DNA from: a virus
Taxonomy: Duplodnaviria > Heunggongvirae > Uroviricota > Caudoviricetes
Strand: one strand, 5' to 3'
Virus record (IMG/VR): IMGVR_UViG_3300049044_000033
Location: 222,796 to 286,795 of that record
DNA length: 64,000 nt
Shown here: positions 3,873 to 52,938 of the stretch, in pieces
How positions within the stretch are numbered: the first letter of the stretch is position 1
How the letters are laid out: every line of letters begins with the position of its first letter
Position numbers and translations under genes: made by a program
The notes under the pieces: generated by a model
What the model saw: only the letters and a program-made list of their open reading frames with translations
The model's database searches: none
What the model was told of the DNA's origin: nothing

Positions 3873-4409
3873 TTAGTTTTGCGCACTTTTCTTGCCCGTG
3901 GGAGCAATAATCGCAAACAACTGCCGTTCGCTGCGTGCCACTGGGCGTTCAAACTTGAAATCCTCGAGATAGCTGAGGAATTCTTGCATTACAGATGCAC
4001 CAACATCCAAATGTGTAATCTCACGACCCTTGAACTTGATAACAACCTTGACTTTGTCACCTTCTTCTAGGAAGCCCTGAGCACGCTTTGCCTTGACCTT
4101 GAGGTCATTATTGTCTGTGGTAGGTCTCAGCTGAATTTCCTTCAGCTCAACTCTCGATTCCCTAGACTTCTTAGCAGCTTCCTTGGCACGACGACTCTCG
4201 TCATACTTGAACTTGCCATAGTCCAGAATCTTGCAGACCGGCATACCATTTGCCATGTTGATGGCAACTAGATCCAGTCCTACCTGACGGGCTCGGTTAC
4301 GAGCTTCAATCAGTGAGATAACACCAATCTGCTCGCCGGTGTCACCAATGAGACGTACTTCTTTAGCGCGGATCTGGTCGTTCACCGCATACTTAAAATT
4401 CACAGACAA
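3873..4409 (-). CDS. infC: translation initiation factor IF-3
   Basis: 178 aa. IRAKEVRLIGDTGEQIGVISLIEARNRARQVGLDLVAI...PVCKILDYGKFKYD and the C-domain KVVIKFKGREITH align along the whole length with bacterial IF3. Confidence 0.9.
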   Translation of the reverse strand: MSVNFKYAVNDQIRAKEVRLIGDTGEQIGVISLIEARNRARQVGLDLVAINMANGMPVCKILDYGKFKYDESRRAKEAAKKSRESRVELKEIQLRPTTDNNDLKVKAKRAQGFLEEGDKVKVVIKFKGREITHLDVGASVMQEFLSYLEDFKFERPVARSERQLFAIIAPTGKKSAQN

Positions 4410-4468: not shown

Positions 4469-5719
4469 TCATGCTACGTTGGGATTATCATACAGAACAA
4501 CAGGTTCTGCGTTACCCTCAATAACATCCTTTGTGACCTTAACAGTCACAGCACCCTGATCCTTAAGATCAGGAAGTTCGTATTGTACCTTGATGAGACG
4601 CTTTTCAATGACGCTCCTCAAGCCACGCGCACCAGTCTTTCGGGTGATGGCATCAACTGCCACTGCACGGAGAGCGTCTTCGTCAAACTCAAGAGCAATG
4701 TTCTCAAGCTGGAACATTTTGTTGAACTGCTTCACAAGAGCATTCTTAGGTTCAGTGAGAACCTTAATAAGCTGATCCTGGTCTAGCTCTTCCAAGCTAG
4801 TGATGACTGGTAGACGTCCGACTAGTTCAGGGATCAAACCGAACTTCTGAAGGTCTTCTGGTTCAACGCTACCTAGCAGCTTGCTAGACACCTTGTCCAA
4901 ATCATCCTTCACTGAAGCACCGAAACCAATGCTACCCTTGTTCTTGTTCATGCGCTTGGCAATGATTTCATCCAAGCCCACAAAAGCCCCGCCAACAATG
5001 AACAAGATGTTCTTTGTATTCACAACAGCCATTTCGGCGTTTGGATGCTTGCGGTTACCCTGTAGGGGAACTCGAACTTCACTACCTTCGATGATCTTCA
5101 GCAAAGCCTGCTGGACGCCTTCACCCGATACGTCGCGTGAGATGCTAGCCGAGTCGCCCCTGCGAGCCTTCTTATCAACTTCGTCCAAGTAAATGATGCC
5201 ACGCTCGGCCTTTGCAACATCATTGTCACAGACCTGTAGCAAGCGAGAGATAATCGTCTCAACGTCGTCACCCACGTAACCTGCTTCAGTAAGCGAAGTA
5301 GCGTCAGCGATTGTGAAGGGAACATCAAGCAACTTTGCGATGCTCTTTGCCATTAGGGTCTTACCCGAACCCGTTGGACCGAGGAGCAAGATGTTGCTCT
5401 TCTCAAGTTCAACGTCATCAACCACTGGGTTGGCAAGACGCTTATAGTGATTGTGGACAGCCACAGCCATGACCATTTTGGCATCATTTTGACCGATGAC
5501 ATACTGATCTAGGAATTCACGAATCTGACGAGGGCTTGGGATGGTGCCATCCTTAATAGCCATCTTAGTAGAAGATGAATCATCTTCTTTCAAGATATCA
5601 GCGCAGAGCTGAACGCAGTCATTACAGATGAAGACGTCAGGTCCAGCAATAAGCTTCTGGACATGCTCCTGCTTCTTTCCGCAGAAGCTGCAGGTTAGTG
5701 ATTTCTTATTCTCGCTCAT
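4469..5719 (-). CDS. clpX: ATP-dependent Clp protease ATP-binding subunit ClpX
   Basis: 416 aa. N-terminal C4 zinc finger (CSFCGK...CNDC), Walker A GPTGSGKT, ClpX-type AAA+ body including the LDEVDK Walker B region. Confidence 0.9.
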
Positions 5720-19912: not shown

Positions 19913-20632
19913 TTACTTCTTAAAGTTCTCAATACAAGCTTTAATCTTGTCTATTGACAAGTTTCCAACATCAACGCTGAATACCTTACGGATACTATCA
20001 GCTGCTTGGGCAAAGAAGAGATCTTCCGTCATCGTCATTGGGTTAGTTTCTACTGGATCAACATCGCCGTAGTAGACGGCAGAATTAGCGCCATGTTCGA
20101 AGCATTCAACGCTCACTAGACGAACGTCAGGATTGACCGCATAACGACCGAGCTCGCCACTCTTCATCTTCTCAAGAAGCTCAACCGACTTCTCGTAAAC
20201 CAGCTTGGCGGTCAATTCACAGCCAACACCAGGAACAATTCGGAGAGCACAGAGACGACCGCGTTCGTAGGGCTTGGCAATCGTGCTATTGCCAACCTGG
20301 TCAGTTTCAACGCTAGACGGCTTCACACCATCATAGTCATCAATCGTAGATGCACGAGCAAGGGTCTTAAAGGTATCAAGAGCCGGATCATCCTCAGCAA
20401 CCAAGATCGTATGATCGAACATATAGTCCAGGTATTCCTTAATAGGCTTCATTCCGCCGAAATCAAAACACCAGTTCTTTTCATCAAGCGTCTCAGATTC
20501 CCAGACGAACTTGAAGCCTAGGCTGTAGCCGTGAAGGGTAGAGCAGTGTGAGTGATTAGCTTTCCATTGACGGAAGCAGCAAGATAGTCCACGGTCGTTG
20601 CCGTAGGTTTTAGTAGATTGAAACTTTGCCAT
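19913..20632 (-). CDS. T-fold protein, QueD/6-pyruvoyl-tetrahydropterin-synthase-like
   Basis: 239 aa. HSHCSTLHGYS resembles the CxxxHGH zinc motif of PTPS/QueD. Confidence 0.45.
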   Translation of the reverse strand: MAKFQSTKTYGNDRGLSCCFRQWKANHSHCSTLHGYSLGFKFVWESETLDEKNWCFDFGGMKPIKEYLDYMFDHTILVAEDDPALDTFKTLARASTIDDYDGVKPSSVETDQVGNSTIAKPYERGRLCALRIVPGVGCELTAKLVYEKSVELLEKMKSGELGRYAVNPDVRLVSVECFEHGANSAVYYGDVDPVETNPMTMTEDLFFAQAADSIRKVFSVDVGNLSIDKIKACIENFKK

Positions 20633-22755: not shown

Positions 22756-23087
22756 TTGCCACCGAACGTGAGCTTAAACATCGCTGCGATATCCCCTTTA
22801 GACTTGGGAAAAAGGAAGAAGGTGAAATCCCGATAAGAGCTATCAAGCATCATGAGAACTGGCAGATTATGCTGTTCATAAAACTCAGTAGCCTCTGGTC
22901 CACAAATCCTATCGGCCGTATCCGGATAGTCCGTTCTCGGTCGAAGGACAGTGAGTTCGTATCCCTTAATTGGAACGACATGGAATTGTTGCTCCATAGT
23001 GGATACGAACTCAGTATAATCGCAATGGTCAGTCATTCGACCTCCAACAGTTCTTCCTTCGACTTGGACCAGCGCGAGAAGGTCCAA
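22752..23087 (-). CDS. FKLxWGG-family small protein (second cluster)
   Basis: C-terminus AAMFKLTFGGK. Confidence 0.5.
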   Translation of the reverse strand: MDLLALVQVEGRTVGGRMTDHCDYTEFVSTMEQQFHVVPIKGYELTVLRPRTDYPDTADRICGPEATEFYEQHNLPVLMMLDSSYRDFTFFLFPKSKGDIAAMFKLTFGGK

Positions 23088-24187
23088 GCCTGCTTCATGC
23101 GATTCAGCCTCTGACCCATTGCCGGACCAGGCTTCATACCAGTTTCCAGCAGGTCCTTGCCCGAAACCGGGAAGGTCGGGATCACGAAGTTCCTCGCATA
23201 GTCGGCCAGGATAGTTTCACCCTGAACTTCAGCAAAGCTTACAACATGATCCCGAGGAAATTCGTCCCGAGTCAGCAGCACTTCAATCTTCTGCTCATCC
23301 AGGAAGACACCCCGATTGCGGATCATATTCCGAACCTTGGCTTCCTCGTGCGAGCTCATCTTCCAGAACTTGAAGAACTTCTCTTCGTCAGAGCTGGCAA
23401 CCAGTGTCGACAGAGCAGCCAGGGCATCATCGGCGCGAGACAGTTCAGCAGGATTGAAGCGGAACAGACCCAGTGCCCGATTAACCCGAGTCTTGAAGAT
23501 TGCATCAACAATGCGAGTCCGACCCGGCATCTTGGGATCCAGCAGCTTCTGCATTTCCAGCCAGAACCGCTCGACACTAACGACGTTCAGCTTATCCAGC
23601 ACCTCACCCTCGGCGAAGATATCCAGCGTCTCCTGATCCATCTTAGCATCGAAACGGGCTGCGAACCGGAAGAAGCGCAGAATACGCAGGTAGTCCTCTT
23701 CGACCCGCTTGCGCGCATCGCCTACGAATCGAACCACACGATTCTTCAGATCTTCCTGGCCCTTGAAGTAGTCGAATACGTTACCTTCAAAGTCCATCGA
23801 CATTGCGTTGAAGGTCAGGTCACGTCGCTCTGCATCCTCTTCAAACGACCTCGTGAATTCAACCTCAGCATGACGACCGTCAGTCTCGACGTCGATCCGC
23901 AGCGTCGTAACTTCGAAGGGTTCTTTGTCCACAACCAGCGTAGCCGTGCCGTGCTGGATACCAGTGGGAATAAAGCCGAACTTGTTGGTATCGGCGATCA
24001 CCTTCATCTCATCCGGCGTTGCGTCGGTGCAGAAGTCCACATCCTTAGCTTCGACGCCCAGCATGGCATCGCGGACACAACCGCCCACAAAACGAATCTG
24101 GAAGCCTGCTGCTTCAAAAGCAGCACCCAGCTTGTTCGTTTCCGGGGTCATCAGTTTGTCCAGCACGTCGATCTCCTTGTTGTTCAT
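23033..24187 (-). CDS. tRNA nucleotidyltransferase (CCA-adding enzyme) / poly(A) polymerase family
   Basis: 384 aa. GGCVRDAMLG...DVDF head-domain motif of class II nucleotidyltransferases. The plus-strand 322 aa ORF opposite is a shadow. Confidence 0.8.
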   Translation of the reverse strand: MNNKEIDVLDKLMTPETNKLGAAFEAAGFQIRFVGGCVRDAMLGVEAKDVDFCTDATPDEMKVIADTNKFGFIPTGIQHGTATLVVDKEPFEVTTLRIDVETDGRHAEVEFTRSFEEDAERRDLTFNAMSMDFEGNVFDYFKGQEDLKNRVVRFVGDARKRVEEDYLRILRFFRFAARFDAKMDQETLDIFAEGEVLDKLNVVSVERFWLEMQKLLDPKMPGRTRIVDAIFKTRVNRALGLFRFNPAELSRADDALAALSTLVASSDEEKFFKFWKMSSHEEAKVRNMIRNRGVFLDEQKIEVLLTRDEFPRDHVVSFAEVQGETILADYARNFVIPTFPVSGKDLLETGMKPGPAMGQRLNRMKQAWTFSRWSKSKEELLEVE

Positions 24188-27764: not shown

Positions 27765-28208
27765 CTATATGGTTAAGCGAAACAAGACCATATGCTTCGG
27801 GGTATCGGACAATGGGGAATCAATCATCTGAACAATCAAAGGGGTGACCTTAATAGCTCGTTCGCTACAAACTTCATTGCTTCTCTTTAGGTCATTGCTG
27901 ACCATACCCAAATCAATCCAGCGACAATAACCCATATCTGTAAAGCTACTAGGTGATACCTTTATAGCATAGAGGTAAGCGTGAAGATACGCAGCAACTT
28001 TAGATTGCCCATGCTTCTCGTGAAGTTCCCAGAGGTTCCTACCCAATCGAGTGCAGGTCTTCTTCAATCGACCTTTCTCGTAAGGCGTGATACCTAGAGT
28101 GTTTACAGATACCTCTTCACATTCCATCTTGTCCTTGATATCAAGAGCTAGGTTACGGATAAGACGGAGGTCTTTGATAATAGTCTTATAGAGCTCTGCA
28201 ATATCCAT
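27765..28208 (-). CDS. hypothetical protein (147 aa)
   Basis: ORF. Its stop overlaps the upstream gene's start. Confidence 0.45.
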   Translation of the reverse strand: MDIAELYKTIIKDLRLIRNLALDIKDKMECEEVSVNTLGITPYEKGRLKKTCTRLGRNLWELHEKHGQSKVAAYLHAYLYAIKVSPSSFTDMGYCRWIDLGMVSNDLKRSNEVCSERAIKVTPLIVQMIDSPLSDTPKHMVLFRLTI

Positions 28209-28699
28209 TACCGGTATCCCAATTCCTTGATATCATTGCGCACCTGAGTCTCAATCTCGCCTAAGTCGTTAGAACCTTGCCAAGTGGATCGGCTCAAAGC
28301 CCGAGGATCATTGGCCGCCAAGCCAATACCCCAAACTCTGTCCCATGGGGACGCTTCCACTAGAGTCGTGCCATCCGTAGCCAGTAGCCAATTCAGGCAA
28401 TTGGTATCCTGAGTGAACTTGGCAAAGTTGGCTCGATATACGATCAGCTTCCGGTTAGCCTCCCATTTGGACGACACAAAACCTCGTACCAAGCGACCAG
28501 TGGCTTTCTGAACCTTGGGATTGTCACTTTTCATAATGATGTCAAGGGCGTCATCATCACCAAACAGTCGGGCTTTCTCAGCCATCATGAACTGTTCCGC
28601 GCAGTTGTATTCCACACCCTCTATGGTAAACCAGCTAGGATACCACTGGCTTCCAGGTCCACCATAGAAGAATGTGAATTGCTCGCTCACTGGCACCAA
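28208..28699 (-). CDS. NADAR / YbiA-like (DUF1768) domain protein
   Basis: FFYGGPGSQWYPSWF...CAEQFMMAEKARLFGD...LVEASPWDRVWGIG matches the NADAR family signature. Confidence 0.75.
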   Translation of the reverse strand: MVPVSEQFTFFYGGPGSQWYPSWFTIEGVEYNCAEQFMMAEKARLFGDDDALDIIMKSDNPKVQKATGRLVRGFVSSKWEANRKLIVYRANFAKFTQDTNCLNWLLATDGTTLVEASPWDRVWGIGLAANDPRALSRSTWQGSNDLGEIETQVRNDIKELGYR

Positions 28700-29130
28700 C
28701 CTGCCCGCTTGCCGCCAATATAGGGACGAGCATAACCACGAGCAATCAACATATTAGTGAGGCTCTCTCCGCCCACGAACACATCAGCATCAACGCGCCC
28801 GCCATACTTGTCCCACTTGAGGTTGGTCAGCGTAACCTTGCGACCAGCAGTGAGGATCACGCGAGTTGTAAATGCCTTGGCCGCTTGTGCGTTATACTTT
28901 TCTGAAGGGCACTTGCCGCGCATCTCAGGGGTATCAACACCACGAACCCGGACGCCAATCCGGCTCAGTTCAGGCGGCAGACCAGTCATCTTAATGTAAA
29001 AGGTATCTCCGTCATAGATACCCACAACATCGTAGGTATAGGTCGGAGCAGCGATTGCTGGGGTTGCGACAAAAGCCGCAAGAGCAAAAAGGGCGTTACG
29101 AATAATCTTCATAACACCCTTTTTACACAT
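28687..29130 (-). CDS. secreted staphylococcal-nuclease-like (SNase/thermonuclease) protein
   Basis: Signal peptide, then VVGIYDGDTFYIK...RVRGVDTPEMRGKC...YGGRVDADV...LIARGYA, the SNase GDT...R.GIDTPE pattern. Confidence 0.65.
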   Translation of the reverse strand: MCKKGVMKIIRNALFALAAFVATPAIAAPTYTYDVVGIYDGDTFYIKMTGLPPELSRIGVRVRGVDTPEMRGKCPSEKYNAQAAKAFTTRVILTAGRKVTLTNLKWDKYGGRVDADVFVGGESLTNMLIARGYARPYIGGKRAGWCQ

Positions 29131-29152: not shown

Positions 29153-30352
29153 TTAGCGGGCATTAAGCTGTGCCTGTCGCTGTGCTGCCGAGGCCAGCGA
29201 TTCCTTGAGCTTCTGCTCTGCTGCGATCAAACGCTGCTCAGCATCGGCGCGCTTGGCCTTACCTTGCTCTGCGAGATCGATGGACTCATTGATCGTAGCG
29301 ATCAAGAGTTCATTAGCCTGTTCCGCTGCCTCAACATCGAAGATGCCGCGCTCGATTTCCTTGCGGGCAACTGCGTTGCTAGTATTGAGCTGCTTCGCGG
29401 ACTGAACGATCAGCTCGTTGGTGAAATCAGTAGCCGTCTTAGTGGCCTTGCCGGCTTCTTCTGCGCGCCATGCTGCAATGGAAACAGCCATAGTGCGCTT
29501 CCAGAGGGGCAAAGTATTGAGCAGCTGACTCTGGATCTTCTCTGCGAGACCCTTATCATTTGCCTGGACGATGCGGATGCTAGGTAGCGCCTGGATGGTC
29601 AGGTTACGCGTCAGCAAGAGATCAGCCCGCTTGCGTTCCAGAGAATCACGAGCTTCGGTCAAGTCCCGCAGATCCTGCACATCTGCCATATCACCGCTGG
29701 CATCGGACTTAGCCTTGGCGGCCGGGATCATATTCGTGTTAACGTCCTCGAGCAGGTAGTCCATAGCGGCAATCTGCTCATCGAGCGAATCCAGCAGACC
29801 CAACGTGGCTTCGTATTGCTTGTCGAGTGCCACAATATCCTTGAGCATCTGGACGCGATGCCCTTCAAGAACGTTGTAGGTCTTGAGAATCTGACCTTCG
29901 ACCGTCTGGTAGCGATCCAGGAACTTCTGCAGGACGCTGGCCTTACCTAGCAGCTTTTGGAAGAAGCCAGGCTTCTGACCAGTAGCAAGAGCCGCAAAAT
30001 CCAGCCCCTTCATTTCGCGGACCATCTGGTTCATCGCGTCGCCGACTGGACCAGTATCCTTGGTACGAACGCCCTGGAGCATTTGTTCGGAAACTTGCGT
30101 AGTTGCCTTCTGTGCTTCAACGCCGAAGGTGATAATCGACTGACTATCCTTGAGGTTGATCTTGCTTGCGAGCTCCTTGGCACGTTCGCGCGACACCTTG
30201 TTGGGAATACGTCCGGCCTGACCATTGAGGCTGACAATATCCTGAGATCCGATCTCAGGCACGGTCAGAGCATTTTCAGCCGTCGGTGTGGGGAGAAGTT
30301 CACCGGTCAACGACGGGGTCGCCGTACCGATCTTTGTAGGATCACTTGCCAT
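29153..30352 (-). CDS. TelA-like (toxic anion resistance family) protein
   Basis: 399 aa alpha-helical protein. Family-level resemblance only. Confidence 0.4.
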   Translation of the reverse strand: MASDPTKIGTATPSLTGELLPTPTAENALTVPEIGSQDIVSLNGQAGRIPNKVSRERAKELASKINLKDSQSIITFGVEAQKATTQVSEQMLQGVRTKDTGPVGDAMNQMVREMKGLDFAALATGQKPGFFQKLLGKASVLQKFLDRYQTVEGQILKTYNVLEGHRVQMLKDIVALDKQYEATLGLLDSLDEQIAAMDYLLEDVNTNMIPAAKAKSDASGDMADVQDLRDLTEARDSLERKRADLLLTRNLTIQALPSIRIVQANDKGLAEKIQSQLLNTLPLWKRTMAVSIAAWRAEEAGKATKTATDFTNELIVQSAKQLNTSNAVARKEIERGIFDVEAAEQANELLIATINESIDLAEQGKAKRADAEQRLIAAEQKLKESLASAAQRQAQLNAR

Positions 30353-30354
30353 TT

Positions 30355-31071
30355 TTAGATTCCCTCGTTGTTGAGTCGGTTCTTCATAACAGTCATGTTG
30401 ACATCAAAGTCCATGACATCATTTGCCAAAAGCTTGTCGAGCAGCTTTTGGAAATTATCATCGATGGTGTCGAGCATTTCGTCGAACTGTGCCATCTGCT
30501 TCTGTGCTTCGAGATTGCGAGCACCGGTCCGGCTCAGCTGAGCATAGCCCTTGACTAGTGTGATCGTTTCATCCAAGTAACTGTTGAGCCAGCTTTGAGC
30601 CAGCAAAACGTCCTTGGGATCAACGCGGAAATCCTCGATGATCTTACGACCAATAGCATCAATATGCTTGATGCGTCGGATTGTGTTGGGGCTCTTGATC
30701 TGGGTAGCTTCCATGAGGATCCGGTCCAGCTTGTCACTGCCCATCTTGATCGCTTCCACGACCAGCTTCGTATCCACGCCCGAAGTACCTGCTGCGATAT
30801 CGTCAATATGCCGGTAGAGATCCTTAATGTCTTGTGCGGTTGCCGGGCGCCGACCAGGGAAGAAGTACCAAATCCCTAATCCAGTTGCTGCGCTCAACGG
30901 GCCAGCTAGTGCGAGATCACCGATAAAGGAAAGTGGGAAAGCAGCCATGCCGCTTACAAAGACACACGTTGCGCCTCCAAATGCTGCTAACTTACTCACT
31001 AGATCTTTGTTCATCGGTTCCTCGCTTAACACTGGCTCCTTTATAGCAAGGTTTACCAATGTGTCTACCAC
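30355..31071 (-). CDS. hypothetical membrane-associated protein (238 aa)
   Basis: ORF with hydrophobic N-terminal segments, coupled to its neighbours. Confidence 0.45.
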   Translation of the reverse strand: MVDTLVNLAIKEPVLSEEPMNKDLVSKLAAFGGATCVFVSGMAAFPLSFIGDLALAGPLSAATGLGIWYFFPGRRPATAQDIKDLYRHIDDIAAGTSGVDTKLVVEAIKMGSDKLDRILMEATQIKSPNTIRRIKHIDAIGRKIIEDFRVDPKDVLLAQSWLNSYLDETITLVKGYAQLSRTGARNLEAQKQMAQFDEMLDTIDDNFQKLLDKLLANDVMDFDVNMTVMKNRLNNEGI

Positions 31072-31129
31072 TGATTAGAAAAGAAAGGGCGACATTGCTG
31101 CCGCCCCTTCTCCTATAGGTTAGTCCAAC

Positions 31130-32869
31130 TTAGTCTTCTGGGTTAATACCAGCAAGCTTCTGGATCTCAGCCTTCTCGCTAGGAGCAAGAGGAGCCTCGA
31201 TTACCGTCTTAGCTACGCGACGTGCTGCTGGCTTTGCAACCTGCGGAGCACCCACGACTGCCAGACCTTCATCATCCAGAGGAGCAGCAACCGATTCGAC
31301 CAGACCATTAAGGCCACGGCTCAGGTCAACGCCAAGCTCGCGAGCCAGTTCGTCAACAACCGGAACCTGCAGTCGGTAGCCCAGCATCGAGTTGGTCAGG
31401 TCAGTAGCGAGGTTTCCTGTAGGAGCCGACTGACCGCCGAAACCTTCGCCATTGGAATGACCGCCCAGGCCACCCATCTGAACTACGCGGATGCTGTCGA
31501 CCTTCTCCATCGGCTTGGTCATCTTTTCCATGATGGCCGGCAGAGCTTCAATCAGAGCCTTGCGCATGTTGTATGCCATCTGGGCAGAGCTTGTCACGTT
31601 AGCAGCTTCGTTGAGGGCGCGCTGACCTTCCGATTCAACTTCGTAACGCTTTGCGTCAGCGTCGATGAGGCGTTCCTTGGCCTGTGCGCTTGCGTCAGCA
31701 GCAGCCAGTTCAGCTTCAGCACGGATACGAATACCCGCAGCTTCTTCCTGAGCCTTAGTCTCAGCCGCAATAACAGCAACCTTCTGGCTACGTTCTGCCT
31801 GTGCCTGTGCCTCAACAGTCTTCACCGCTTCAGCAGCCTTAACAGCTTCCGCGCGAGCAGCATCAGCAGCCGCACGGGCCTTGGATTCCTGCTCCGACTT
31901 CTCAGCAACCGCAATACGTGACTGCTGGCTAGCAATCTCGAGAGCCTGCGCTGCTTCAGTTTCGGCTACCTGGATAGCGCGCTTCTGTTCGACGCGAGCC
32001 TGCTCAGTAGCACGAGCAGCTTCAATTTCTGCCAGATCAGATTCACGCTTACGGTCGGCGCGGGTCTGGGCCAGTTCAGCTTCCTGCTGGGCACGACGGG
32101 TTTCAACTTCGCGCTCCTGCTCCAGGGTAGCGAATTCGTCCTGCTGCTTAATATCCAGCGAGCGCTTGTTGGCTTCGAAGTTCTTCTGCTCAATCGCAAC
32201 GCGGTTGTCAGCTTCGATGTCGTTACGCTCCTTCTTGCGAGTCTCAGTAACCTGAGTCAGCTTCGCAAGACCTTCAGCGTCGAAGGCGTTGTTGGGGTTG
32301 AAGAATTCAACCGAAGTCTGGTCCAGACCAGTTAGCGACACCGATTCAAGTTCCAGACCGTTCTTGCGCAGGTCTTCAGCAACAGTTGCCTGAACCTTCT
32401 GAACAAACTCAGCGCGCTTTTCGTGAAGGTCCTGCATATCCATACCAGCTGCCGCAGCACGGAGAGCGTCGATGAACTTGCCTTCAATTAGCGAAGCCAG
32501 CTGATCAGGAGCCAAGGTGCGGCGACCAAGCGTCTGTGCCGCAGCCGCAATGCTCTGCTCATCTGGAGCAACACGAACATAGAACTCTGCCTTCACGTCA
32601 ACGCGCAGACGGTCCTTAGTGATCAGCGAATCACGACCCTTACGTTCGACACCGAGACGCAGCGTCTGCATGTTGATGGGGATGGTTTCGTGGAACACTG
32701 GCAGAATAACAGCGCCACCGTCCTTAACGACCTTCTGTCCACCCATACCAGTACGGACAAAAGACTGTTCCTTGCTTGCGCGATGGAACATTTTGGTCAT
32801 GATCAAACCGATGACCATGAAACCTACTAGGAAGACGCCTAGCAGAATACCTGCAAATTGAAGAGTCAC
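31130..32869 (-). CDS. SPFH/band-7 flotillin-like protein (YqiK-like)
   Basis: 579 aa. N-terminal TM, SPFH core (VRTGMGGQKVV...), then a long Ala/Glu-rich repetitive coiled coil (AEAELAAADASAQAKE). Confidence 0.75.
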   Translation of the reverse strand: MTLQFAGILLGVFLVGFMVIGLIMTKMFHRASKEQSFVRTGMGGQKVVKDGGAVILPVFHETIPINMQTLRLGVERKGRDSLITKDRLRVDVKAEFYVRVAPDEQSIAAAAQTLGRRTLAPDQLASLIEGKFIDALRAAAAGMDMQDLHEKRAEFVQKVQATVAEDLRKNGLELESVSLTGLDQTSVEFFNPNNAFDAEGLAKLTQVTETRKKERNDIEADNRVAIEQKNFEANKRSLDIKQQDEFATLEQEREVETRRAQQEAELAQTRADRKRESDLAEIEAARATEQARVEQKRAIQVAETEAAQALEIASQQSRIAVAEKSEQESKARAAADAARAEAVKAAEAVKTVEAQAQAERSQKVAVIAAETKAQEEAAGIRIRAEAELAAADASAQAKERLIDADAKRYEVESEGQRALNEAANVTSSAQMAYNMRKALIEALPAIMEKMTKPMEKVDSIRVVQMGGLGGHSNGEGFGGQSAPTGNLATDLTNSMLGYRLQVPVVDELARELGVDLSRGLNGLVESVAAPLDDEGLAVVGAPQVAKPAARRVAKTVIEAPLAPSEKAEIQKLAGINPED

Positions 32870-32885
32870 TTAATTCTCCTATGAA

Positions 32886-33530
32886 TTAGATCTTACGCAC
32901 CATGTGGGCGTGATTAATTGACCTATGTGGACCGGTTAGCACCGCAGTTTCACCCACATCAATATTTTCTTCACCATCGGCAAAGACATAAACGTAATGA
33001 TCAGTACCATACTGATCGGTTACCCGGATTGAACCACTCTGGGTATTTGAGACTGGTCCGACAACAATAGGACCGGATAGATTAGATAAACTTTCCAGAG
33101 ATACCGCGGATGTAATATCTCTAGGCATTAATTGTGCAGCCACAATCGACCCCCAACGAACAAAGGGGAGCGTCAATGAGAACACAATAGGACAACTGAG
33201 CAACATAGGAGCATAGGCACCTGTCAGGCCTTCATAGACCCACTGTGCGCTATATCCAAGGATTGTGAACACTGTGCTGAAGATCACAAGGAAGATCATC
33301 ACTGGAACACTTCCAGGATTAAACCAACCTAAGATGTGAGAGTCTACTTCTAAGTAGTCGGGAATGCCGTTCCCGTTCAGATCCGCAGAGAAATCTATAT
33401 CATGATGGAATGAGCTAAAGCCCAAAATCAATCCGATGATTTCAAGAACCAAAATAGCACCGAGGAGACACGCACTCACAAGGAATGGTGTGTTGGCTTG
33501 TGCTAGTAAGAAAGTAGAAATGTTGTCCAT
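32886..33530 (-). CDS. NfeD-like membrane protein (YqiJ-like partner of flotillin)
   Basis: 214 aa. Multiple TM helices plus a C-terminal beta-rich segment, immediately upstream of the SPFH gene in the same orientation, as in yqiJK operons. Confidence 0.5.
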   Translation of the reverse strand: MDNISTFLLAQANTPFLVSACLLGAILVLEIIGLILGFSSFHHDIDFSADLNGNGIPDYLEVDSHILGWFNPGSVPVMIFLVIFSTVFTILGYSAQWVYEGLTGAYAPMLLSCPIVFSLTLPFVRWGSIVAAQLMPRDITSAVSLESLSNLSGPIVVGPVSNTQSGSIRVTDQYGTDHYVYVFADGEENIDVGETAVLTGPHRSINHAHMVRKI

Positions 33531-33565: not shown

Positions 33566-33865
33566 TTATTCTTTTGGTGGGAGAGAGTCAGCTAATCGTG
33601 CGAGGACGTTACCGTGACAAGGAGAGGGTGAACACCAGCAACCTAACTTTTTGCCTTTGAGTTCATAGAGGGCATCCATAAGAGCTTTTTGCTCTACTAC
33701 CCACTCAGCATATTGCTGGATACATTCTTCTCGGGTGCCGTCACGCCCGACCACGAAGGGATTGCCCCACTTTGTCTTCCGGTCGATACGAACGTCGTAG
33801 TGATCTTCTTTGAGATTAACTACCGAGGTTCCGGGCGGGGGCCATGAAAAGAGATCGTCTGCCAT
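33566..33865 (-). CDS. DUF4326-like small protein
   Basis: 99 aa. WGNPF...LGCWCSPSPCHG motif. Confidence 0.5.
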   Translation of the reverse strand: MADDLFSWPPPGTSVVNLKEDHYDVRIDRKTKWGNPFVVGRDGTREECIQQYAEWVVEQKALMDALYELKGKKLGCWCSPSPCHGNVLARLADSLPPKE

Positions 33866-34052
33866 CCTAATACTTATAAGGTGACCCAGAAGTTTTTCAA
33901 CCCCTGGGTCTGCTTCCGCAGTGCTTGAGGGTAACTGCTCGGCAGGTCAAATATGTATTACTACGGAAGTATTAGCAAGGGCAGATTGTGCTTTAGGTGC
34001 GTTAAAACGCATATCATAAGAAAAGGTAGACCTAGGTCTACCTTTTCTTACT

Positions 34053-34124
<72 letters not shown>

Positions 34125-34170
34125 CATGTTGTGTGCTCTCTTTGTAGCACCTACATACCTATTTAGCAAT

Positions 34171-34530
34171 TTAAACTTTGAACTCTTTCTTCAAAGCTTC
34201 TTCCATTTGAGAAAAGGAGAGTGGCTTTTCTAAGACTGTGAAGCCATGGAAGGCTTCCGGAAGCTTATGGGGATCACCGGTGCAAACAATCACAGGGGTG
34301 AGGCTATGCCGGAGGTGCTCTGCTACTTCTTCAGTAGTGCCATCTGTGAGCGTCACATCAAGGACCACCCCGGCGAATCTGCTATTTTCCACAAGCTTTA
34401 TGGCTTCAGGAACTGTTGAGGCAAATCCCGCTACTGTGAGACCGACCTCATCGCATACTTCTTCCCAGTAGATTTGAAGATATGCTTCATCTTCAATAAT
34501 CAGGACTTGTTTGCGATTTATTCCAAACAT
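34171..34530 (-). CDS. stand-alone response-regulator receiver (CheY-like REC) domain protein
   Basis: VLIIEDE acidic pocket, VVLDVTLTDG phospho-acceptor Asp region, PVIVCTG, LEKP Lys. 119 aa with no output domain. Confidence 0.7.
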   Translation of the reverse strand: MFGINRKQVLIIEDEAYLQIYWEEVCDEVGLTVAGFASTVPEAIKLVENSRFAGVVLDVTLTDGTTEEVAEHLRHSLTPVIVCTGDPHKLPEAFHGFTVLEKPLSFSQMEEALKKEFKV

Positions 34531-34538
34531 ATGAACCC

Positions 34539-35063
34539 CTAGAACATACTCAGCTTTGCTAACATGACTTGGTTAACTGTGCCGCCGTCTAGGATCATCG
34601 CGCTAGTTGGCTTACCAACACGAACAAGATCGCCGGCTTTGTTTCCCTGGGCGCTCTTAAAGAGCTTGGCGTAAATTGCTCCCTTGTCAGAGATCTTCTT
34701 CACCGTGCCCATAACCATATCAACTCGGGCGCCTTCTGTGCCGCGAGGGAAAAGGATAGTATGACCAATCTCAATAGTGCGTCCCATGAGATCATTGAAG
34801 CGCGGAGTGGTTTCGCGATCTTCTACAAAATGCGTCCCGCCCTTCCAATCGGCCAGATGCTCGAGCTCACTGCCCTTCATCCAAAAGCTGCGGCGGCCAT
34901 TCACAGATAGCTGATAATCATGAGCGCTGTAATATTTGGAGCGGACGCTAACGACTCGTCCAACAGTGCCTTCCCGGACGCCTGAAATGATCCGCACAAA
35001 CTGTGGACCATCTTCCATGCTTTTAATCAAAGACGTTGCTGCGTGATAGTTATTGAGATTCAT
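34539..35063 (-). CDS. hypothetical protein (174 aa)
   Basis: ORF, no motif recognised. Confidence 0.45.
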   Translation of the reverse strand: MNLNNYHAATSLIKSMEDGPQFVRIISGVREGTVGRVVSVRSKYYSAHDYQLSVNGRRSFWMKGSELEHLADWKGGTHFVEDRETTPRFNDLMGRTIEIGHTILFPRGTEGARVDMVMGTVKKISDKGAIYAKLFKSAQGNKAGDLVRVGKPTSAMILDGGTVNQVMLAKLSMF

Positions 35064-35314: not shown

Positions 35315-35506
35315 TTATTTGATTAGGGCTTCGTCAAACTGTAGTCGAAAACGGAAAGCGTCACTGATTTCAGAGAAGATCAATTCAACTGACTCATCGT
35401 CAACATCAACAATGGCCTCAAGATCGCCCTGCTCTTCAACGAGCCATTCTTCGACTTCATTTTTAGATGCGGCATCAACCCGCAATGTCCATGTGCTTGC
35501 GACCAT
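35315..35506 (-). CDS. small acidic protein, possible distant FKL-family relative
   Basis: 63 aa. C-terminus SDAFRFRLQFDEALIK echoes DALRFKLSF of the 62941 member. Confidence 0.3.
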   Translation of the reverse strand: MVASTWTLRVDAASKNEVEEWLVEEQGDLEAIVDVDDESVELIFSEISDAFRFRLQFDEALIK

Positions 35507-35604
35507 TTGTCCCTCGTCTGTGTTGCTAATAAGTCTTAATTAGCGTCCTACAGCCCTTTTTATCAATATATAGTTTACCAATAAAATTAGGGATAGGTGA
35601 TCAA

Positions 35605-35975
35605 GCCAAAAGAAAATGCCCCGTTTCCGTTGATCAGTCGGGGCCACACTGCACCTAGAGAGTTGATCCTCTAGGGATTGTGAGGCATAGGAGTCTACCG
35701 AAGCTTCTTCCTAACCTCGCCGCAATCAAGCAGCGAGCGCCTCGACAACATTGTTGTCATTTGCATTTACATGCTTGGTCTTTTAGAGGAACCACCCTCG
35801 TCATCTCTCGCAGCCGTTTGCTCCCACGTCGATCCTAAGCTCAGGCCCATCATAACCGCTCTTTGCAGAGCCAAGCCACTCCTTAGGTAAAGTGACTCTC
35901 AGTTATGGTGGACCTGCCGGGTACCGCCCCCGGGTCCGCTAGTCGCTATTAAGCTTTGGTCATCAATAACATCAC
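35605..35975 (-). ncRNA. ssrA: tmRNA (ssrA), circularly permuted two-piece type
   Basis: On the minus strand, an acceptor segment GGAC-CCGGG-GGCGGTA-CCCGG-CAGGTCC-ACCA (T-arm plus 3' acceptor strand plus CCA, ending at plus 35906) lies upstream of a coding segment. That segment starts GGGCCTGAGCTTAGGATCGACGTGGG at plus 35848 (compare E. coli GGGGCUGAUUCUGGAUUCGACGGG) and gives a G3-U wobble with the 3' strand. A PK1-like CGAGGGTGGTTCCTCTAAAAGACC follows, then tag ORF GCA AAT GAC AAC AAT GTT GTC GAG GCG CTC GCT GCT TGA = ANDNNVVEALAA-stop (plus 35765-35727). The terminator hairpin GCCCCG...CGGGGC plus TTTTCTTTT lies at about 35606-35644. The 5' limit of the acceptor piece is not defined. Confidence 0.75.
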
Positions 35976-36009
35976 TCTTATAACATTGGTTTGCCAATGC
36001 GTCAAGAGC

Positions 36010-41524: not shown

Positions 41525-42160
41525 TTAGACTATAGGGGTGGACCATTCTCGACCACTCAGCGAAAGCGTTAGTTGAACACCGAAGTTGTTCCTAAACGCA
41601 AGCCAAGTTGTTCCAGTGTCACTACCTGTTAGATCATTACGGGTGAGCTGGAAATGTGCCGACGAACTTGTTGGTAGATTGGCAGTACCGCCTGGCCAAT
41701 TCATTGCGCACATCGATCCAGGGGTAAGATTGACCACGGATGCATCTGGGTTACTGGGATGGACACATACTGTCATAATACCCATTAGCTTCACAGTGCC
41801 ATTAGCATCAGAGAGACTAAAATCATAGGTAGCAAAGTCTCGTTCATGGTGAGTGAATAGAGGAATAACACTCGTCATCTGATTATTAGCTAGACACTTA
41901 ACAGCAACCAGCGGTCCGTGATAATAAACATCACCACCAATACTACGCTGAACATCTAGTTCAGTCAGAAGCTTAATATTTTGGTAAGGATATGATTTCC
42001 TACCAGAGACGCTTGGGTGATTTTGCGCACCAATGAATACCTCTCCGGTATCCGTTGTCATGCCAATCTCACCATCAGCTAGAGCAGTAGGGAGTTCCCC
42101 ACTTGTTCCTCGCCTATGCTGAACCCTCGAGATTTGGTAAACAGCCATGTTATCCTCCAA
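41525..42160 (-). CDS. hypothetical protein (211 aa)
   Basis: ORF. Confidence 0.45.
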   Translation of the reverse strand: MEDNMAVYQISRVQHRRGTSGELPTALADGEIGMTTDTGEVFIGAQNHPSVSGRKSYPYQNIKLLTELDVQRSIGGDVYYHGPLVAVKCLANNQMTSVIPLFTHHERDFATYDFSLSDANGTVKLMGIMTVCVHPSNPDASVVNLTPGSMCAMNWPGGTANLPTSSSAHFQLTRNDLTGSDTGTTWLAFRNNFGVQLTLSLSGREWSTPIV

Positions 42161-43388: not shown

Positions 43389-45011
43389 TTAACGATCGTA
43401 GGACGTCTTGGTGATCTTCTTGGATTTACCAAATTCCTGACGAGCAGCCTTCTTGAGCTCATCCAAGCTGCCATATTCTAGCTCAGCTTGCTTGATGATT
43501 GCTTCGTGGATTGTTTCGTTATCCTGAAAGTGCTTTTGACATACTGCCCTAATGGCCTGGTAGACACTCGCGTGTGGATTTGCCTTGATGGTTTCACGGA
43601 CAATACGTAGAGCTTGGGCCAACTGTCCTTGGGTCAAATTATGACCAGCAGCTTCCTCTAGTTCTGCCTCTTCCTCTTCAAGTGCTTCAACGAGCCCCTT
43701 AGACAGGGCCTCAAGACGGGCACGAGTTTCATGGACGCTAGGTGTACCCTGGTTCTGATAGGACCCTTGCTGAACGCCTGCGAGCTTCTGAACCTCTTGG
43801 ATCTGCTGAGAGAAGAATACATCATCAGTCGTATCTTCTTCGACCTTTTCTTCCTCTTCGACTTCCTCGTGGAACTGACGGTATTCACTAGTTGGCATAA
43901 CATCAATACCTAGGACGTAAGCGCCTTCCTTAATGTCGACTTCTACTTCTCCAGCAGCAACCTTGGCCGCGATAGAACGAGCAGCGCCATAATCAGCGAA
44001 GCCTTCCTGGATTAGCTGAACCTTAGTACCAGCAGTAGCCCAGCTTGGATTCTCAGCCGTGCCAATGTTTTCCATCATCTGGGTGTGGACCACCACAACA
44101 AAATTATTGGCCTCCATTACAGGCTCCTCCTCTGTTTCTTCTAGTGATTCCTCGATATCAGCCAATGGCATGTTATCGTTGTCGTAATCATCACGGATCT
44201 CTTCATTAAGACTCTCGTGGATTTCATCTTCAATATCAGTTGCGAGCGCATCTTGTTCCATCACATAGTTGAGAACTAACTGATGAAACTCTGCTTCGCC
44301 GAGTATGCCATTTTCCTGCATATATGGCGTATTGACATAATGTCCATAAGCACGGGAGAGCACGGTCTCAATTGGAAAGCCCTCATTATACCCTGACCAA
44401 TCCAAGCATTCTACCAAGTCACCCTTGTAGATTACATCACCGATAGACTGAAGACCTTCTGAAAGACTCTCGCTGATCTTCTTAGCAATCATAATTGGAC
44501 TCTTGATCCCAGTAGTGATCAGACCCTTCTTCTTGAATTCGCTGTAGGTCTTTTCGTCAGTCAACATCGCGCTGCTATTCGAGGCAGAGAATGCAATGAC
44601 CTGAAAGTGTTCCATATCGAACTCAGTGCAGCCACCATACATGACATTTGGCTTAAAGGTAACTTCCTTGAATGCCTTGATAGCTTCTCCTTTGCTCGAA
44701 TAACCAAGCATGACTTTGTCTTCGTCAAACTTGCTTCCATCAACAGTCAGCTGATGCATCACATAAACCCTAGCATCTTTCTTGGGGTTCTTCCTCAGAT
44801 AACAATCGAGGTGTTCTCCGTCAGGGCTATGAGTGCCTTTGATATAGCCATAGTGGGCTGGGATCTTTATAGCCCATTCCTCACCGGTCTTTTTGTTTTT
44901 GCCGCGGCGATAACCGTCGGCGGGCACCTCAACTGAGATATCTAGGCCTTCAAAATGTTGACGGCTGTGAAGTTTTGCCTCATTGAGGCTCTTGAAAAAT
45001 TCCATGCTCAC
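43389..45011 (-). CDS. protein with N-terminal inorganic-pyrophosphatase-like domain and long acidic C-terminal extension
   Basis: IPAHYGYIKGTHSPDGEHLDCYL and VYVMHQLTVDGSKFDEDKVMLGY parallel the family I PPase NYGYI..T...DGDPLDVLV and V..M.D..G.D.K motifs. Total 540 aa. Confidence 0.4.
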   Translation of the reverse strand: MSMEFFKSLNEAKLHSRQHFEGLDISVEVPADGYRRGKNKKTGEEWAIKIPAHYGYIKGTHSPDGEHLDCYLRKNPKKDARVYVMHQLTVDGSKFDEDKVMLGYSSKGEAIKAFKEVTFKPNVMYGGCTEFDMEHFQVIAFSASNSSAMLTDEKTYSEFKKKGLITTGIKSPIMIAKKISESLSEGLQSIGDVIYKGDLVECLDWSGYNEGFPIETVLSRAYGHYVNTPYMQENGILGEAEFHQLVLNYVMEQDALATDIEDEIHESLNEEIRDDYDNDNMPLADIEESLEETEEEPVMEANNFVVVVHTQMMENIGTAENPSWATAGTKVQLIQEGFADYGAARSIAAKVAAGEVEVDIKEGAYVLGIDVMPTSEYRQFHEEVEEEEKVEEDTTDDVFFSQQIQEVQKLAGVQQGSYQNQGTPSVHETRARLEALSKGLVEALEEEEAELEEAAGHNLTQGQLAQALRIVRETIKANPHASVYQAIRAVCQKHFQDNETIHEAIIKQAELEYGSLDELKKAARQEFGKSKKITKTSYDR

Positions 45012-51025: not shown

Positions 51026-51271
51026 ATGGGCGATCTATTTAAAAGTGTAGTCGAAATGATCGCGAAGGGCGAAGCAGGTTCACTGACGGCTATCCTTCTA
51101 GCTATCATCGGGGTTCTGGGATGGTATTGCTACCGTCTTATGAAGCAGGTGGAAAAGAAGGACGAGAAGATCTACAAGATCATCGACGAATATTCCAAGA
51201 ACAACATTACCATCACTGATGCGTTGAATGGTCTAAAGACTGTGTTGATCGAGATTAAGGCAAAGCTCTAA
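51026..51271 (+). CDS. small membrane protein
   Basis: 81 aa, one TM helix (SLTAILLAIIGVLGWYCY). AAGGAG RBS 8 nt upstream. Confidence 0.45.
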   Translation: MGDLFKSVVEMIAKGEAGSLTAILLAIIGVLGWYCYRLMKQVEKKDEKIYKIIDEYSKNNITITDALNGLKTVLIEIKAKL

Positions 51272-52938
51272 TGTGGTTCAATAAGGATAAAAAGGCTAAG
51301 AAGCAGCAAAGGGAAGCAGTTCTAAAAGCTGCGATGGAATCTAGCGAAGCTTTGGAAAAGGCCGCTAAGGGGACCATGAATCTAGCCGAAGATGTTACTA
51401 AGACTCTTCAGAGCCGAATTGATGATTATGCCCAGCAGATTGACCAAACAGCCCGCCTCCTAAGTGATGCCCTCATGCTTGTTGATGATCACGGAATCAT
51501 TGAAAGCTTCAACCAAGCAGCTGAAAGCATGTTTGGTCATGCTCGTCGTTCAATTAGAGGCAAGAATCTTTCTACCCTTTTTGAATTCCAACAAGACACA
51601 AAGATCACCCCAGACTTCATGGAAGAGCTGATGAACAAGGTGAGCGAGAATGATCTCTCTGCTACTGTTCATTATGAAGACTTTATGGGAGTCCGCAAGG
51701 ATGACACGAAGTTCTATGTTGATGTAGGCGTAAGCAAAATCATCCGTAGCAATTCAAAAGTCAAGTATATCATCCTGGTTCGTGACGTAAGCCAAAAGGT
51801 CATGAATAGCAAGATGCTAGAAGAATTAGCTCAGAGGAACCAAGAACTCCTAGCAACTATCGATGCTTCAAATACTGGGTTCATCATTATTAGTCCTGAT
51901 GGTAGTGACTTCAAGATCAACTTCGTGAATGAAGGCTTTAGTCGCCTAACTGGTTATTCGAGAACTCAAATACGTAACATGAGTCTAATGGACCTTCTTG
52001 GCATAGAGCAGACATTCTGGTCAGTGCGCCGCAGTCTATTGGAGCACGTAGAAGCACGTCATGAAGTTCAGCTAGAAATCGGCAACTGTCAGACTATTTG
52101 GTTCGACGTTCAGATTACACCGGTCTTTCAGAATGGTGTGTTGAACCAGTGGATTCTAGTATTCTATGATACTACCGCACTCAAGAAGGCCTATCACGAC
52201 CTACGCAAAAGCGAGTCGCACTTTAAGGCATTCAGTGACGCTAGCTCTGAAAGTATGTTGATTCACAACTTTGGCCAGGTGATTGATTGGAATGATCGAC
52301 TCAATAAGCTGACCGGCTACTCTGACGAAGAGATCGAGCAACTCGGTCCACTAGATTTGGTTCATCCTTTAGAGCGTGAAAAGATTCGTGACGAAGTTCA
52401 TCTTCTAGGTAGTAACAGCTACGAAACCCTCTTCATGACCAAGCAGGGAGACGTTCGAGAAGTAGCAGTGAATAGTCGTTCAATTGAATGGGAAAATGCT
52501 GACGCTCGTATTGCTATCGTGCGTGATGTAACTGAATACAAGGATATCGAGACTCAGCTAAAAACAGCTAGAGAGCGTTACCGCACTGTCATTGATAACA
52601 CAATCGACATGGTGATCTGCTTTAATGCCAATTTCGAGATCACTTTTAGCAACCAGACCTTCCGAGACTACTATGATGTAGAACTCGAAGATATTAATGG
52701 ATTCTCCCTCCTAGAGATTATCCCAGAGCCTGATCACCGCAAGTTCATGGAGTATATGTTGAGCATTACTCCTGATATGCAAGTTCGTCGTGGAATTCAT
52801 CGCGTTCAGCGTCACGATGAGGTTAGAATGCAGGATTGGATCGATCGTGGTATCTTTGATGAAGATGGCACCTTGATCGAAATCCAAAGCATTGCTCGAG
52901 ATGTAACGAGTCTACTTCCTCCCCCAAATCAGACTTGA
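51271..52938 (+). CDS. multi-PAS domain protein without recognisable output domain
   Basis: 555 aa. About four PAS-like modules (for example LMLVDDHGIIESFNQAAESMFGH, FIIISPDGSDFKINFVNEGFSRLTGYS, MLIHNFGQVIDWNDRLNKLTGYS, MVICFNANFEITFSNQTFRDYY). ATG overlaps the upstream stop. Confidence 0.65.
   Translation: MWFNKDKKAKKQQREAVLKAAMESSEALEKAAKGTMNLAEDVTKTLQSRIDDYAQQIDQTARLLSDALMLVDDHGIIESFNQAAESMFGHARRSIRGKNLSTLFEFQQDTKITPDFMEELMNKVSENDLSATVHYEDFMGVRKDDTKFYVDVGVSKIIRSNSKVKYIILVRDVSQKVMNSKMLEELAQRNQELLATIDASNTGFIIISPDGSDFKINFVNEGFSRLTGYSRTQIRNMSLMDLLGIEQTFWSVRRSLLEHVEARHEVQLEIGNCQTIWFDVQITPVFQNGVLNQWILVFYDTTALKKAYHDLRKSESHFKAFSDASSESMLIHNFGQVIDWNDRLNKLTGYSDEEIEQLGPLDLVHPLEREKIRDEVHLLGSNSYETLFMTKQGDVREVAVNSRSIEWENADARIAIVRDVTEYKDIETQLKTARERYRTVIDNTIDMVICFNANFEITFSNQTFRDYYDVELEDINGFSLLEIIPEPDHRKFMEYMLSITPDMQVRRGIHRVQRHDEVRMQDWIDRGIFDEDGTLIEIQSIARDVTSLLPPPNQT

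Follow-up and report, generated by a model that had tools for sequence, protein, structure and literature searches.

A stand-alone receiver protein with an intact phospho-acceptor site, encoded by a clade of jumbo phages with and without an adjacent hybrid histidine kinase

A stretch of 64,000 nucleotides (nt) from a tailed-phage record of IMG/VR (IMGVR_UViG_3300049044_000033, positions 222,796 to 286,795; the whole stretch is hereafter called the window) encodes, at positions 34171..34530, a genuine stand-alone receiver protein with an intact phospho-acceptor site, referred to below as REC. The best reading of its sequence and predicted structure is that of a functional, phosphorylatable Rec-only regulator of the alphaproteobacterial Sma0114/SdrG/MrrA type. 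Its gene is a maintained and positionally fixed, but dispensable, accessory gene of a jumbo-phage clade. An earlier note on this DNA had recognized the open reading frame (ORF) as a receiver; what the present comparison adds to it is a clade with a kinase plus Rec-only module, together with natural variants that are devoid of the kinase.

The 119-amino-acid (aa) ORF delimited in the earlier note was confirmed, and the receiver hallmarks claimed for it (EDE, the Asp of VVLDVT, a Thr and a Lys) proved to be real, as all of them align to canonical positions. Against the Pfam Response_reg profile (PF00072), the protein scored 33.5 bits (E 5.1e-8, profile positions 1–110 of 111), for which the curated gathering cutoff (GA) is 30.2 bits. 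Residue positions were taken from alignments to solved receivers, to the REC family and to E. coli CheY. The acidic pocket E13/D14 (motif E13-D14-E15) aligns to CheY D12/D13, and the phospho-acceptor D58, within VVLDVT, is present at the position of CheY D57. T60 occupies the D+2 position (CheY N59), T84 corresponds to CheY T87, the conserved Thr at the end of β4, and K102-P103 to CheY K109-P110, the conserved Lys-Pro after β5. V99 sits where CheY has the switch residue Y106, and an aromatic side chain is thus absent. Within the REC family alignment E13, D14, E15, D58, G85, K102 and P103 were invariant and position 84 was either Thr or Ser, so that the catalytic set (E13, D14, D58, T/S84 and K102-P103) was kept in 25 of 25 family members.

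An AlphaFold2 model of REC, for which a 25-sequence alignment was the input, displayed the alternating β/α topology of receivers with a predicted local distance difference test score (pLDDT) of 96.1 and a predicted template modelling score (pTM) of 0.89. The modelled order of elements was β1-α1-β2-α2-β3-α3-β4-(α4 degenerate)-β5-α5; a regular helix α4 was absent from the predicted structure, in which DSSP assigned two 3-residue turns between β4 and β5. A Foldseek search with the model yielded 494 matches in the PDB at E<=1e-3, and all 50 of those listed were receiver-type domains, headed by PhyR receiver domains, a receiver of Sinorhizobium medicae and SdrG; template modelling (TM) scores of 0.76–0.83 were obtained with many solved receivers. 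The lack of an output domain, also claimed earlier, holds as well, since stop codons delimit the ORF and the gene upstream of it is read in a different frame. The composition of the gene is like that of its surroundings.

Comparison at the sequence level pointed to one class of receivers. The best PDB sequence matches were Sma0114 (2lpm; 9.1e-9, rank 1) and SdrG (5ieb; 2.8e-7, rank 2), followed by weaker matches to PhyR receivers (1e-6 to 7e-5), CheY (2.7e-4) and Spo0F (0.07). The best NCBIfam matches were PRK13435 (55.9 bits, cutoff 151) and a PhyR-type model (45 bits), both far under their cutoffs. Work on such proteins by Brüderlin et al. (2023) identified loss of α4, loss of the aromatic residue and the FATGUY motif as the marks of the Rec-only phosphotransfer intermediaries MrrA, SdrG and Sma0114; the same traits were ascribed to the receiver of CckA, and these Rec-only proteins are thought to be passive, that is, not to act via the allosteric α4-β5-α5 face (PMC9981736). 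In the β4/loop motif of REC, P79-VIVC-T84-G85-D86, the Pro, Thr and Gly of the FATGUY consensus PFxFATG[G/Y] are kept, and bacterial members of the family (for example P0021) have PFVFATGY at this position. Mean pairwise identity among the phage orthologues was 0.5–0.9 in the active-site loops and 0.49 in α1, and it came to 0.29 in β5 and 0.20, the lowest value, in α5, on what would be the output face. Conservation of the docking/active-site face and not of the output face therefore fits the passive phosphotransfer class.

To place the gene in its genomic setting, syntenic loci (carrying L numbers below) were retrieved with REC and its 174-aa neighbour as handles; they come from roughly ten metagenomic contigs of related phages, the lengths of which reach 435–480 kb. 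The order on the gene strand was ribonucleotide reductase (RNR) alpha/beta, glutaredoxin (Grx), genes for 171-aa and 98-aa proteins, a transfer-messenger RNA (tmRNA), a variable slot, the 63-aa and 174-aa genes, REC, a transfer RNA (tRNA) gene, tRNA-Thr(GGT), DUF4326, YqiJ, flotillin, XpaC and TelA. The 174-aa gene always directly preceded REC in the relatives, with a gap of 8–16 nt. The tmRNA flanks the kinase slot, and its DNA sequence is conserved throughout the related loci. In at least four of these, a gene for a hybrid histidine kinase lies about 1 kb upstream of the REC orthologue, right after the tmRNA; the kinase's own receiver carries PIIFTTGH. By blastn colinearity with L009, L004 and L003, the slot measures about 100 nt in the window and about 2.07 kb in L009.

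The kinase of the sister phages is by sequence CckA-like, with scores of 401 bits for PRK13557 and 311 bits for the CckA model of Brucella, each under its equivalog cutoff. Its nearest named cellular relatives (35–44% identity) were mostly alphaproteobacterial (Sphingosinicella, Azospirillum, Aureimonas, Agrobacterium, Rhizobium and Sulfitobacter), with a few betaproteobacterial ones. About 28 clusters of the phage-type kinase (45–100% identity) were found on contigs up to 470–958 kb, and when metagenomes were scanned with the kinase alignment, two fragments of the phage type came back, the other matches being bacterial kinases. Since orthologues of REC stand beside a phage kinase, the lineage has, or had, a kinase of its own. 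Accordingly, the description of REC as an orphan with no cognate kinase nearby is right for the 64-kb window and not for the sister phages, whose orthologues adjoin the CckA-like hybrid kinase. Within the window, hmmsearch with kinase and receiver profiles over every six-frame ORF of >=40 aa detected neither a kinase nor a further receiver; the sole HATPase_c match was the ATPase subunit of topoisomerase II. The only other signalling-type protein found there was a PAS-only protein with four PAS domains, which has no kinase, GGDEF or other output and no similarity to the kinase of the relatives. Its gene overlaps an 81-aa ORF that lies ahead of it (region 51026..52938, plus strand) and looks, to judge from a hydrophobic stretch, like one for a membrane protein.

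The catalytic residues (E/D-D, D58, T/S84 and K-P) were kept in seven of seven syntenic orthologues, with or without an adjacent kinase, even at a mutual identity of 30–59% and lengths of 113–119 aa. In all pairs the proportion of non-synonymous differences (pN, 0.28–0.47) was lower than that of synonymous differences (pS, 0.70–0.88); synonymous divergence (dS) was saturated in nearly all pairs, and pN<pS is the extent of what can be stated. As pN is well below pS, we conclude that REC is under purifying selection.

The source genome is that of a jumbo phage of roughly 450 kb. An identical REC protein is encoded on contigs of 406,756 and 462,455 bp, and the window encodes a T4-type split topoisomerase II, the alpha and beta subunits of a class Ia RNR, glutaredoxin, a DnaB-like helicase, a primase and a virion structural protein (phrog_14154). 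Sinorhizobium phage Phosso (469 kb, cultured) was the nearest deposited phage for both the virion protein and the 174-aa neighbour, the next nearest for the virion protein being Agrobacterium phage Atu_ph07, and the gene order 174aa-YqiJ-SPFH-XpaC-TelA is found in Phosso and in the window alike. The phage origin is thus supported by the 406–462 kb contigs, by the virion and replication genes and by synteny with Phosso, and the clade that carries REC consists of uncultured jumbo phages of 435–480 kb that are distantly related to Phosso. The host is probably an alphaproteobacterium, as suggested by the alphaproteobacterial type of the tmRNA (Rfam RF01849, 84.7 bits, GA 50; RF04321, 96.2 bits, GA 47), the kinship with Phosso and Atu_ph07, and the alphaproteobacterial affinities of kinase and receiver.

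In the mechanism that we propose, Asp58 would be phosphorylated by a histidine kinase or a phosphotransferase. In the sister phages the phosphoryl group probably comes from the phage kinase encoded next to REC; here the donor may be a host kinase or phosphotransferase of the ChpT or PhyT type, or a phage kinase encoded outside the window. REC would serve as a passive phosphotransfer node that relays or drains phosphoryl groups and not as an allosteric, effector-binding switch, a role made unlikely by the degenerate α4, the lack of the β5 aromatic residue and the poor conservation of the α4-β5-α5 face. As an outcome, an alphaproteobacterial phosphorelay of the host would be re-routed during infection, be it the general stress response or the CckA-ChpT-CtrA control of the cell cycle; given a host that is presumably alphaproteobacterial, CckA-ChpT-CtrA/CpdR and the PhyR general stress response are plausible target pathways. 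That REC is a relay or sink tapping a bacterial phosphorelay is, judging from sequence and model, probable by a modest measure. The idea of a phosphate sink or a decoy for host kinases, put forward in the earlier note, is compatible with these data and may well apply; we prefer it in view of the Rec-only phosphotransfer class and the conserved docking face. A more specific proposal, which we advance tentatively and which may well be wrong, is that the clade carries a two-component module of its own (the CckA-like hybrid kinase plus the Rec-only protein) and that members lacking the kinase keep REC wired into host proteins of the ChpT, PhyT or HWE-kinase type, where it would be a phospho-sponge or relay of viral origin and reset the CtrA cell-cycle or the PhyR stress programme during infection. 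Exploitation of CtrA by phages of Alphaproteobacteria, via CtrA-binding sites, is already on record (PMC9437464); the CtrA box TTAA-N7-TTAA occurs once in the window, for an expectation of 0.93, and is hence not enriched.

Several points weigh against the relay or sink interpretation. No kinase or Hpt was found within the 64-kb window by Pfam on 50 of the larger ORFs or by tblastn with the kinase of the relatives. Among the kinase clusters listed, none had a longest contig matching the contigs of this phage, which is indirect evidence that the phage has no kinase of the sister type. The FATGUY motif is kept in part: Val/Ile stand in place of the two Phe residues, Cys in place of Ala and Asp in place of Gly/Tyr. 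The non-synonymous evolution of REC is about three times faster than that of the 174-aa neighbour (pN of the neighbour 0.087, window versus L003), and in L013, which is 98.7% identical to L012 over a 7.2-kb segment holding the REC gene, a G-to-A change at L013:6597 has turned a conserved Trp codon (TGG) into a stop. Phosso has no REC gene, nor does it have the tRNA-Thr and DUF4326, which makes REC dispensable for the core cycle of the phage. In addition, the host is one that we infer, and sequence alone does not separate a relay, a sink and the binding of an effector.

The last of these functions leads to the alternative that survives best, although we regard it as unlikely, namely that REC is a terminal Rec-only effector of the CheY, DivK or CpdR type whose phosphorylation would alter binding to host or phage ClpX or to the 174-aa neighbour. 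The window does encode a ClpX with an N-terminal zinc finger, the part bound by CpdR-type adaptors, and a tmRNA tag ending in LAA, and CpdR, an adaptor of ClpXP, is itself a Rec-only protein with a FATGUY-like motif (PMC9981736); however, no NCBIfam match of REC to CpdR was obtained at E<=1e-3, and the receiver of the sister kinase scored 74 bits for a cutoff of 180. The constant location of REC 8–16 nt downstream of the 174-aa gene would fit a partnership of the two products, yet the 174-aa gene is present without REC in Phosso and evolves independently of it. An effector would moreover be expected to work through the α4-β5-α5 face, which is the least conserved and has no aromatic switch residue. 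The identity of REC as a CpdR-like adaptor was set aside, as NCBIfam gives it no support.

A second alternative is that REC is a decaying passenger, the remainder of a two-component module of the phage that has lost its kinase, and functionless here. The kinase slot is empty in the window and in L003, and the fast non-synonymous evolution, the nonsense allele of L013 and the absence from Phosso could all be read in this way. We nevertheless consider decay improbable, because the catalytic residues are intact in every lineage without a kinase (window, L003, L006 and L012) despite identities of 30–59%, pN stays far under pS in every pair, a full-length ORF is retained, its model is very confident, and position and length of REC are kept across the clade.

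It is very improbable that REC is a cREC-type enzyme that processes cyclic phosphates or ADP-ribose (ADPr) derivatives along with its DUF4326 and NADAR neighbours: cREC domains have been described in jumbo phages and linked to NAD+/ADPr enzymes, and DUF4326 and NADAR (305 nt and about 5.5 kb away) belong to the NAD+/ADP-ribose-linked families discussed for these phages (PMC7824862), but the score to cREC (Pfam PF20274) was 12.7 bits over a partial stretch, under the cutoff of 27, while Response_reg passes; the closest relatives of REC are classical two-component receivers; cREC was never linked to histidine kinases according to its authors (PMC7824862), whereas REC orthologues adjoin a classical one, a context that likewise speaks against it; and L004 retains REC without an adjacent DUF4326.

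We return to REC as a phosphotransfer node and to its place among known proteins. Exhaustive HMMER searching of 1.84 billion representative proteins gave 2743 relatives of REC at E<=1e-3, mostly of 110–160 aa among those listed; a word-index protein search had returned the REC protein alone. The nearest cellular relatives are orphan Rec-only genes, some of them clustered with other Rec-only genes or beside GGDEF genes, and their bacterial context offered no functional lead. No match at E<=1e-3 was found in 50,697 deposited phage records (tblastn), and a single-protein pattern scan of IMG/VR revealed no relative of REC. The receiver domain family itself is textbook material, receiver-containing phage families are already in PHROGs, and phage histidine kinases have already been reported. 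Our literature searches turned up no Rec-only phosphotransfer protein from a phage that has been characterised, and two-component genes go unmentioned in a huge-phage survey.

Phages eavesdrop on host signalling, for example with quorum-sensing receptors. If REC does function as proposed, a bacterial phosphorelay would contain a node encoded by a virus. An intact, clade-wide gene with a CckA-like kinase partner in the sister phages offers a testable system for such viral nodes, in which the natural kinase-plus and kinase-minus variants are a ready-made comparison. Should REC do no more than drain or relay phosphate, it would in addition provide a compact, naturally occurring tool with which to perturb alphaproteobacterial two-component networks.

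The coordinates of the features are collected in Table 1.

Table 1. Features of the window and contents of the variable slot in related loci.
Feature	Coordinates	Strand	Remarks
IF3 homologue, full	3873..4409	minus	IF3_N and IF3_C both above cutoff
ClpX homologue	4469..5719	minus	zf-C4_ClpX + AAA_2 + ClpB_D2-small
Protein with ribosomal L7/L12 C-terminal-like segment	18072..18650	minus	
PTPS/QueD-like gene	19913..20632	minus	
CCA-adding enzyme	23033..24187	minus	
NADAR	28208..28699	minus	about 5.5 kb from REC
SNase	28687..29130	minus	
TelA, XpaC (Halogen_Hydrol), flotillin/SPFH, YqiJ (NfeD-like)	29153..33530	minus	membrane-stress block
DUF4326	33566..33865	minus	305 nt downstream of REC
tRNA-Thr(GGT)	34053..34125	minus	45 nt 3' of REC stop; ARAGORN; Rfam tRNA 64.5 bits
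REC	34171..34530	minus	119 aa; ATG start, TAA stop within coordinates
174-aa gene	34539..35063	minus	directly upstream of REC; stop 8 nt before REC start
63-aa acidic ORF	35315..35506	minus	first gene of conserved 63aa-174aa-REC block
Variable slot	35515..35617	minus	empty here; between tmRNA and 63-aa ORF; blastn colinearity
Permuted two-piece tmRNA	35687..36009	minus	tag reading frame ANDNNVVEALAA*
Protein with Mtd_N domain	41525..42160	minus	major tropism determinant N-terminal domain
540-aa protein with InPase domain	43389..45011	minus	
PAS-only protein, 555 aa	51271..52938	plus	Pfam PAS_9, PAS, PAS_4, PAS_3; NCBIfam sensory_box x4
Slot in L004, L005, L009, L010	L004:7238-8935; L009:3739-5457; L005:2-811; L010:2-700		hybrid histidine kinase, 565-572 aa, PAS-HisKA(HDFNNML)-HATPase_c-REC
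Slot in L006-L008	L006:3599-5553		small ORFs + GIY-YIG homing-endonuclease-like gene
L011-L013	L011/L012:3623-5013		DUF7217 + PAAR genes, inserted ahead of tmRNA-homologous DNA, not after
Slot in window and L003			about 100 nt, effectively empty

The 174-aa protein has no Pfam or NCBIfam match. It has 33 homologue clusters (56–86% identity) on contigs up to 958 kb, and its AlphaFold2 model (pLDDT 83) is β-rich with weak Spt5-KOW/KIN17-like matches, on the basis of which tandem KOW/SH3-like β-barrels are predicted. An Hpt/ChpT-like phosphotransferase was also considered for this neighbour and ruled out, given the β-rich KOW/SH3-like fold and the lack of a confident structural match. An ORF of 60–63 aa occupies the position of the 63-aa ORF in L003–L013; that of the window has no family match. 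A PADLOC scan gave one trivial 17-bit partial match and nothing for the 174-aa or 63-aa ORFs. What looked like a gap of 500 nt upstream of the 63-aa ORF is the tmRNA, which ARAGORN had missed; a TTGAC...TATAA-like element precedes it, and its neighbourhood is an insertion hot spot. Together, ClpX and a tmRNA with a tag ending in LAA suggest that the phage brings its own parts for ribosome rescue and degradation. The tRNA-Thr(GGT) accompanies REC in most of the relatives and follows it at 40–46 nt in five lineages (window, L004, L005, L006 and L009). Directly downstream of it is a perfect hairpin, AAAAGGTAGACC-TAGG-TCTACCTTTTC (region 34004..34066), which is probably a bidirectional terminator that closes the 63aa-174aa-REC-tRNA unit; a simple terminator scan did not list it, and a promoter and terminator scan around the operon gave nothing above shuffled expectation. 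L004 has no DUF4326 beside REC and Phosso lacks it too, and the TelA-XpaC-flotillin-YqiJ block is common to Phosso and all related contigs.

Comparison with known systems starts from the phage side. REC matches phrog_5982 (7e-7) and phrog_731 (3e-6), both PHROG families of unknown function; an agr histidine kinase has been reported for C. difficile phage phiCDHM1 (PMC3901668), and histidine kinases within T8SS clusters of pelagiphages (PMC9599517). These two-component genes are phage-borne like REC, but none of them encodes a characterised Rec-only protein. The cREC proteins of jumbo phages share with REC a receiver fold and a location near NAD+/ADPr genes, REC itself being a classical receiver. 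Among bacterial proteins, CheY and Spo0F, the latter a passive phospho-shuttle, are stand-alone receivers with the same catalytic residues, but their similarity is much weaker and Y106 of CheY is a Val in REC; no chemotaxis genes were found among 50 of the larger ORFs of the window scanned with Pfam, and no sporulation genes were seen in the window. The receiver of PhyR is similar to REC in both sequence and fold, as evidenced by the top Foldseek matches; unlike REC, PhyR has a sigma-like output domain at its N terminus.

The closest known counterparts are Sma0114 of Sinorhizobium meliloti (2LPM/2M98) and SdrG of Sphingomonas melonis (5IEB), with which MrrA of Caulobacter shares the FATGUY Rec-only class. 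REC differs from Sma0114 and SdrG in being phage-encoded, in an identity of about 30% and in its PVIVCTGD motif. Sma0114 is associated with HWE/HisKA_2 kinases and SdrG with genes of the general stress response, and REC in the window has neither association; the kinase of the sister phages is HisKA-type and CckA-like, unlike the HWE/HisKA_2 type of partner of Sma0114. With these differences, REC, Sma0114 and SdrG have in common that each is a single receiver of about 120 aa with an EDE acidic loop, an LDVxL acceptor strand, a P-x-x-x-x-T-G motif after β4, a KP after β5, a degenerate α4 and a missing aromatic switch residue.

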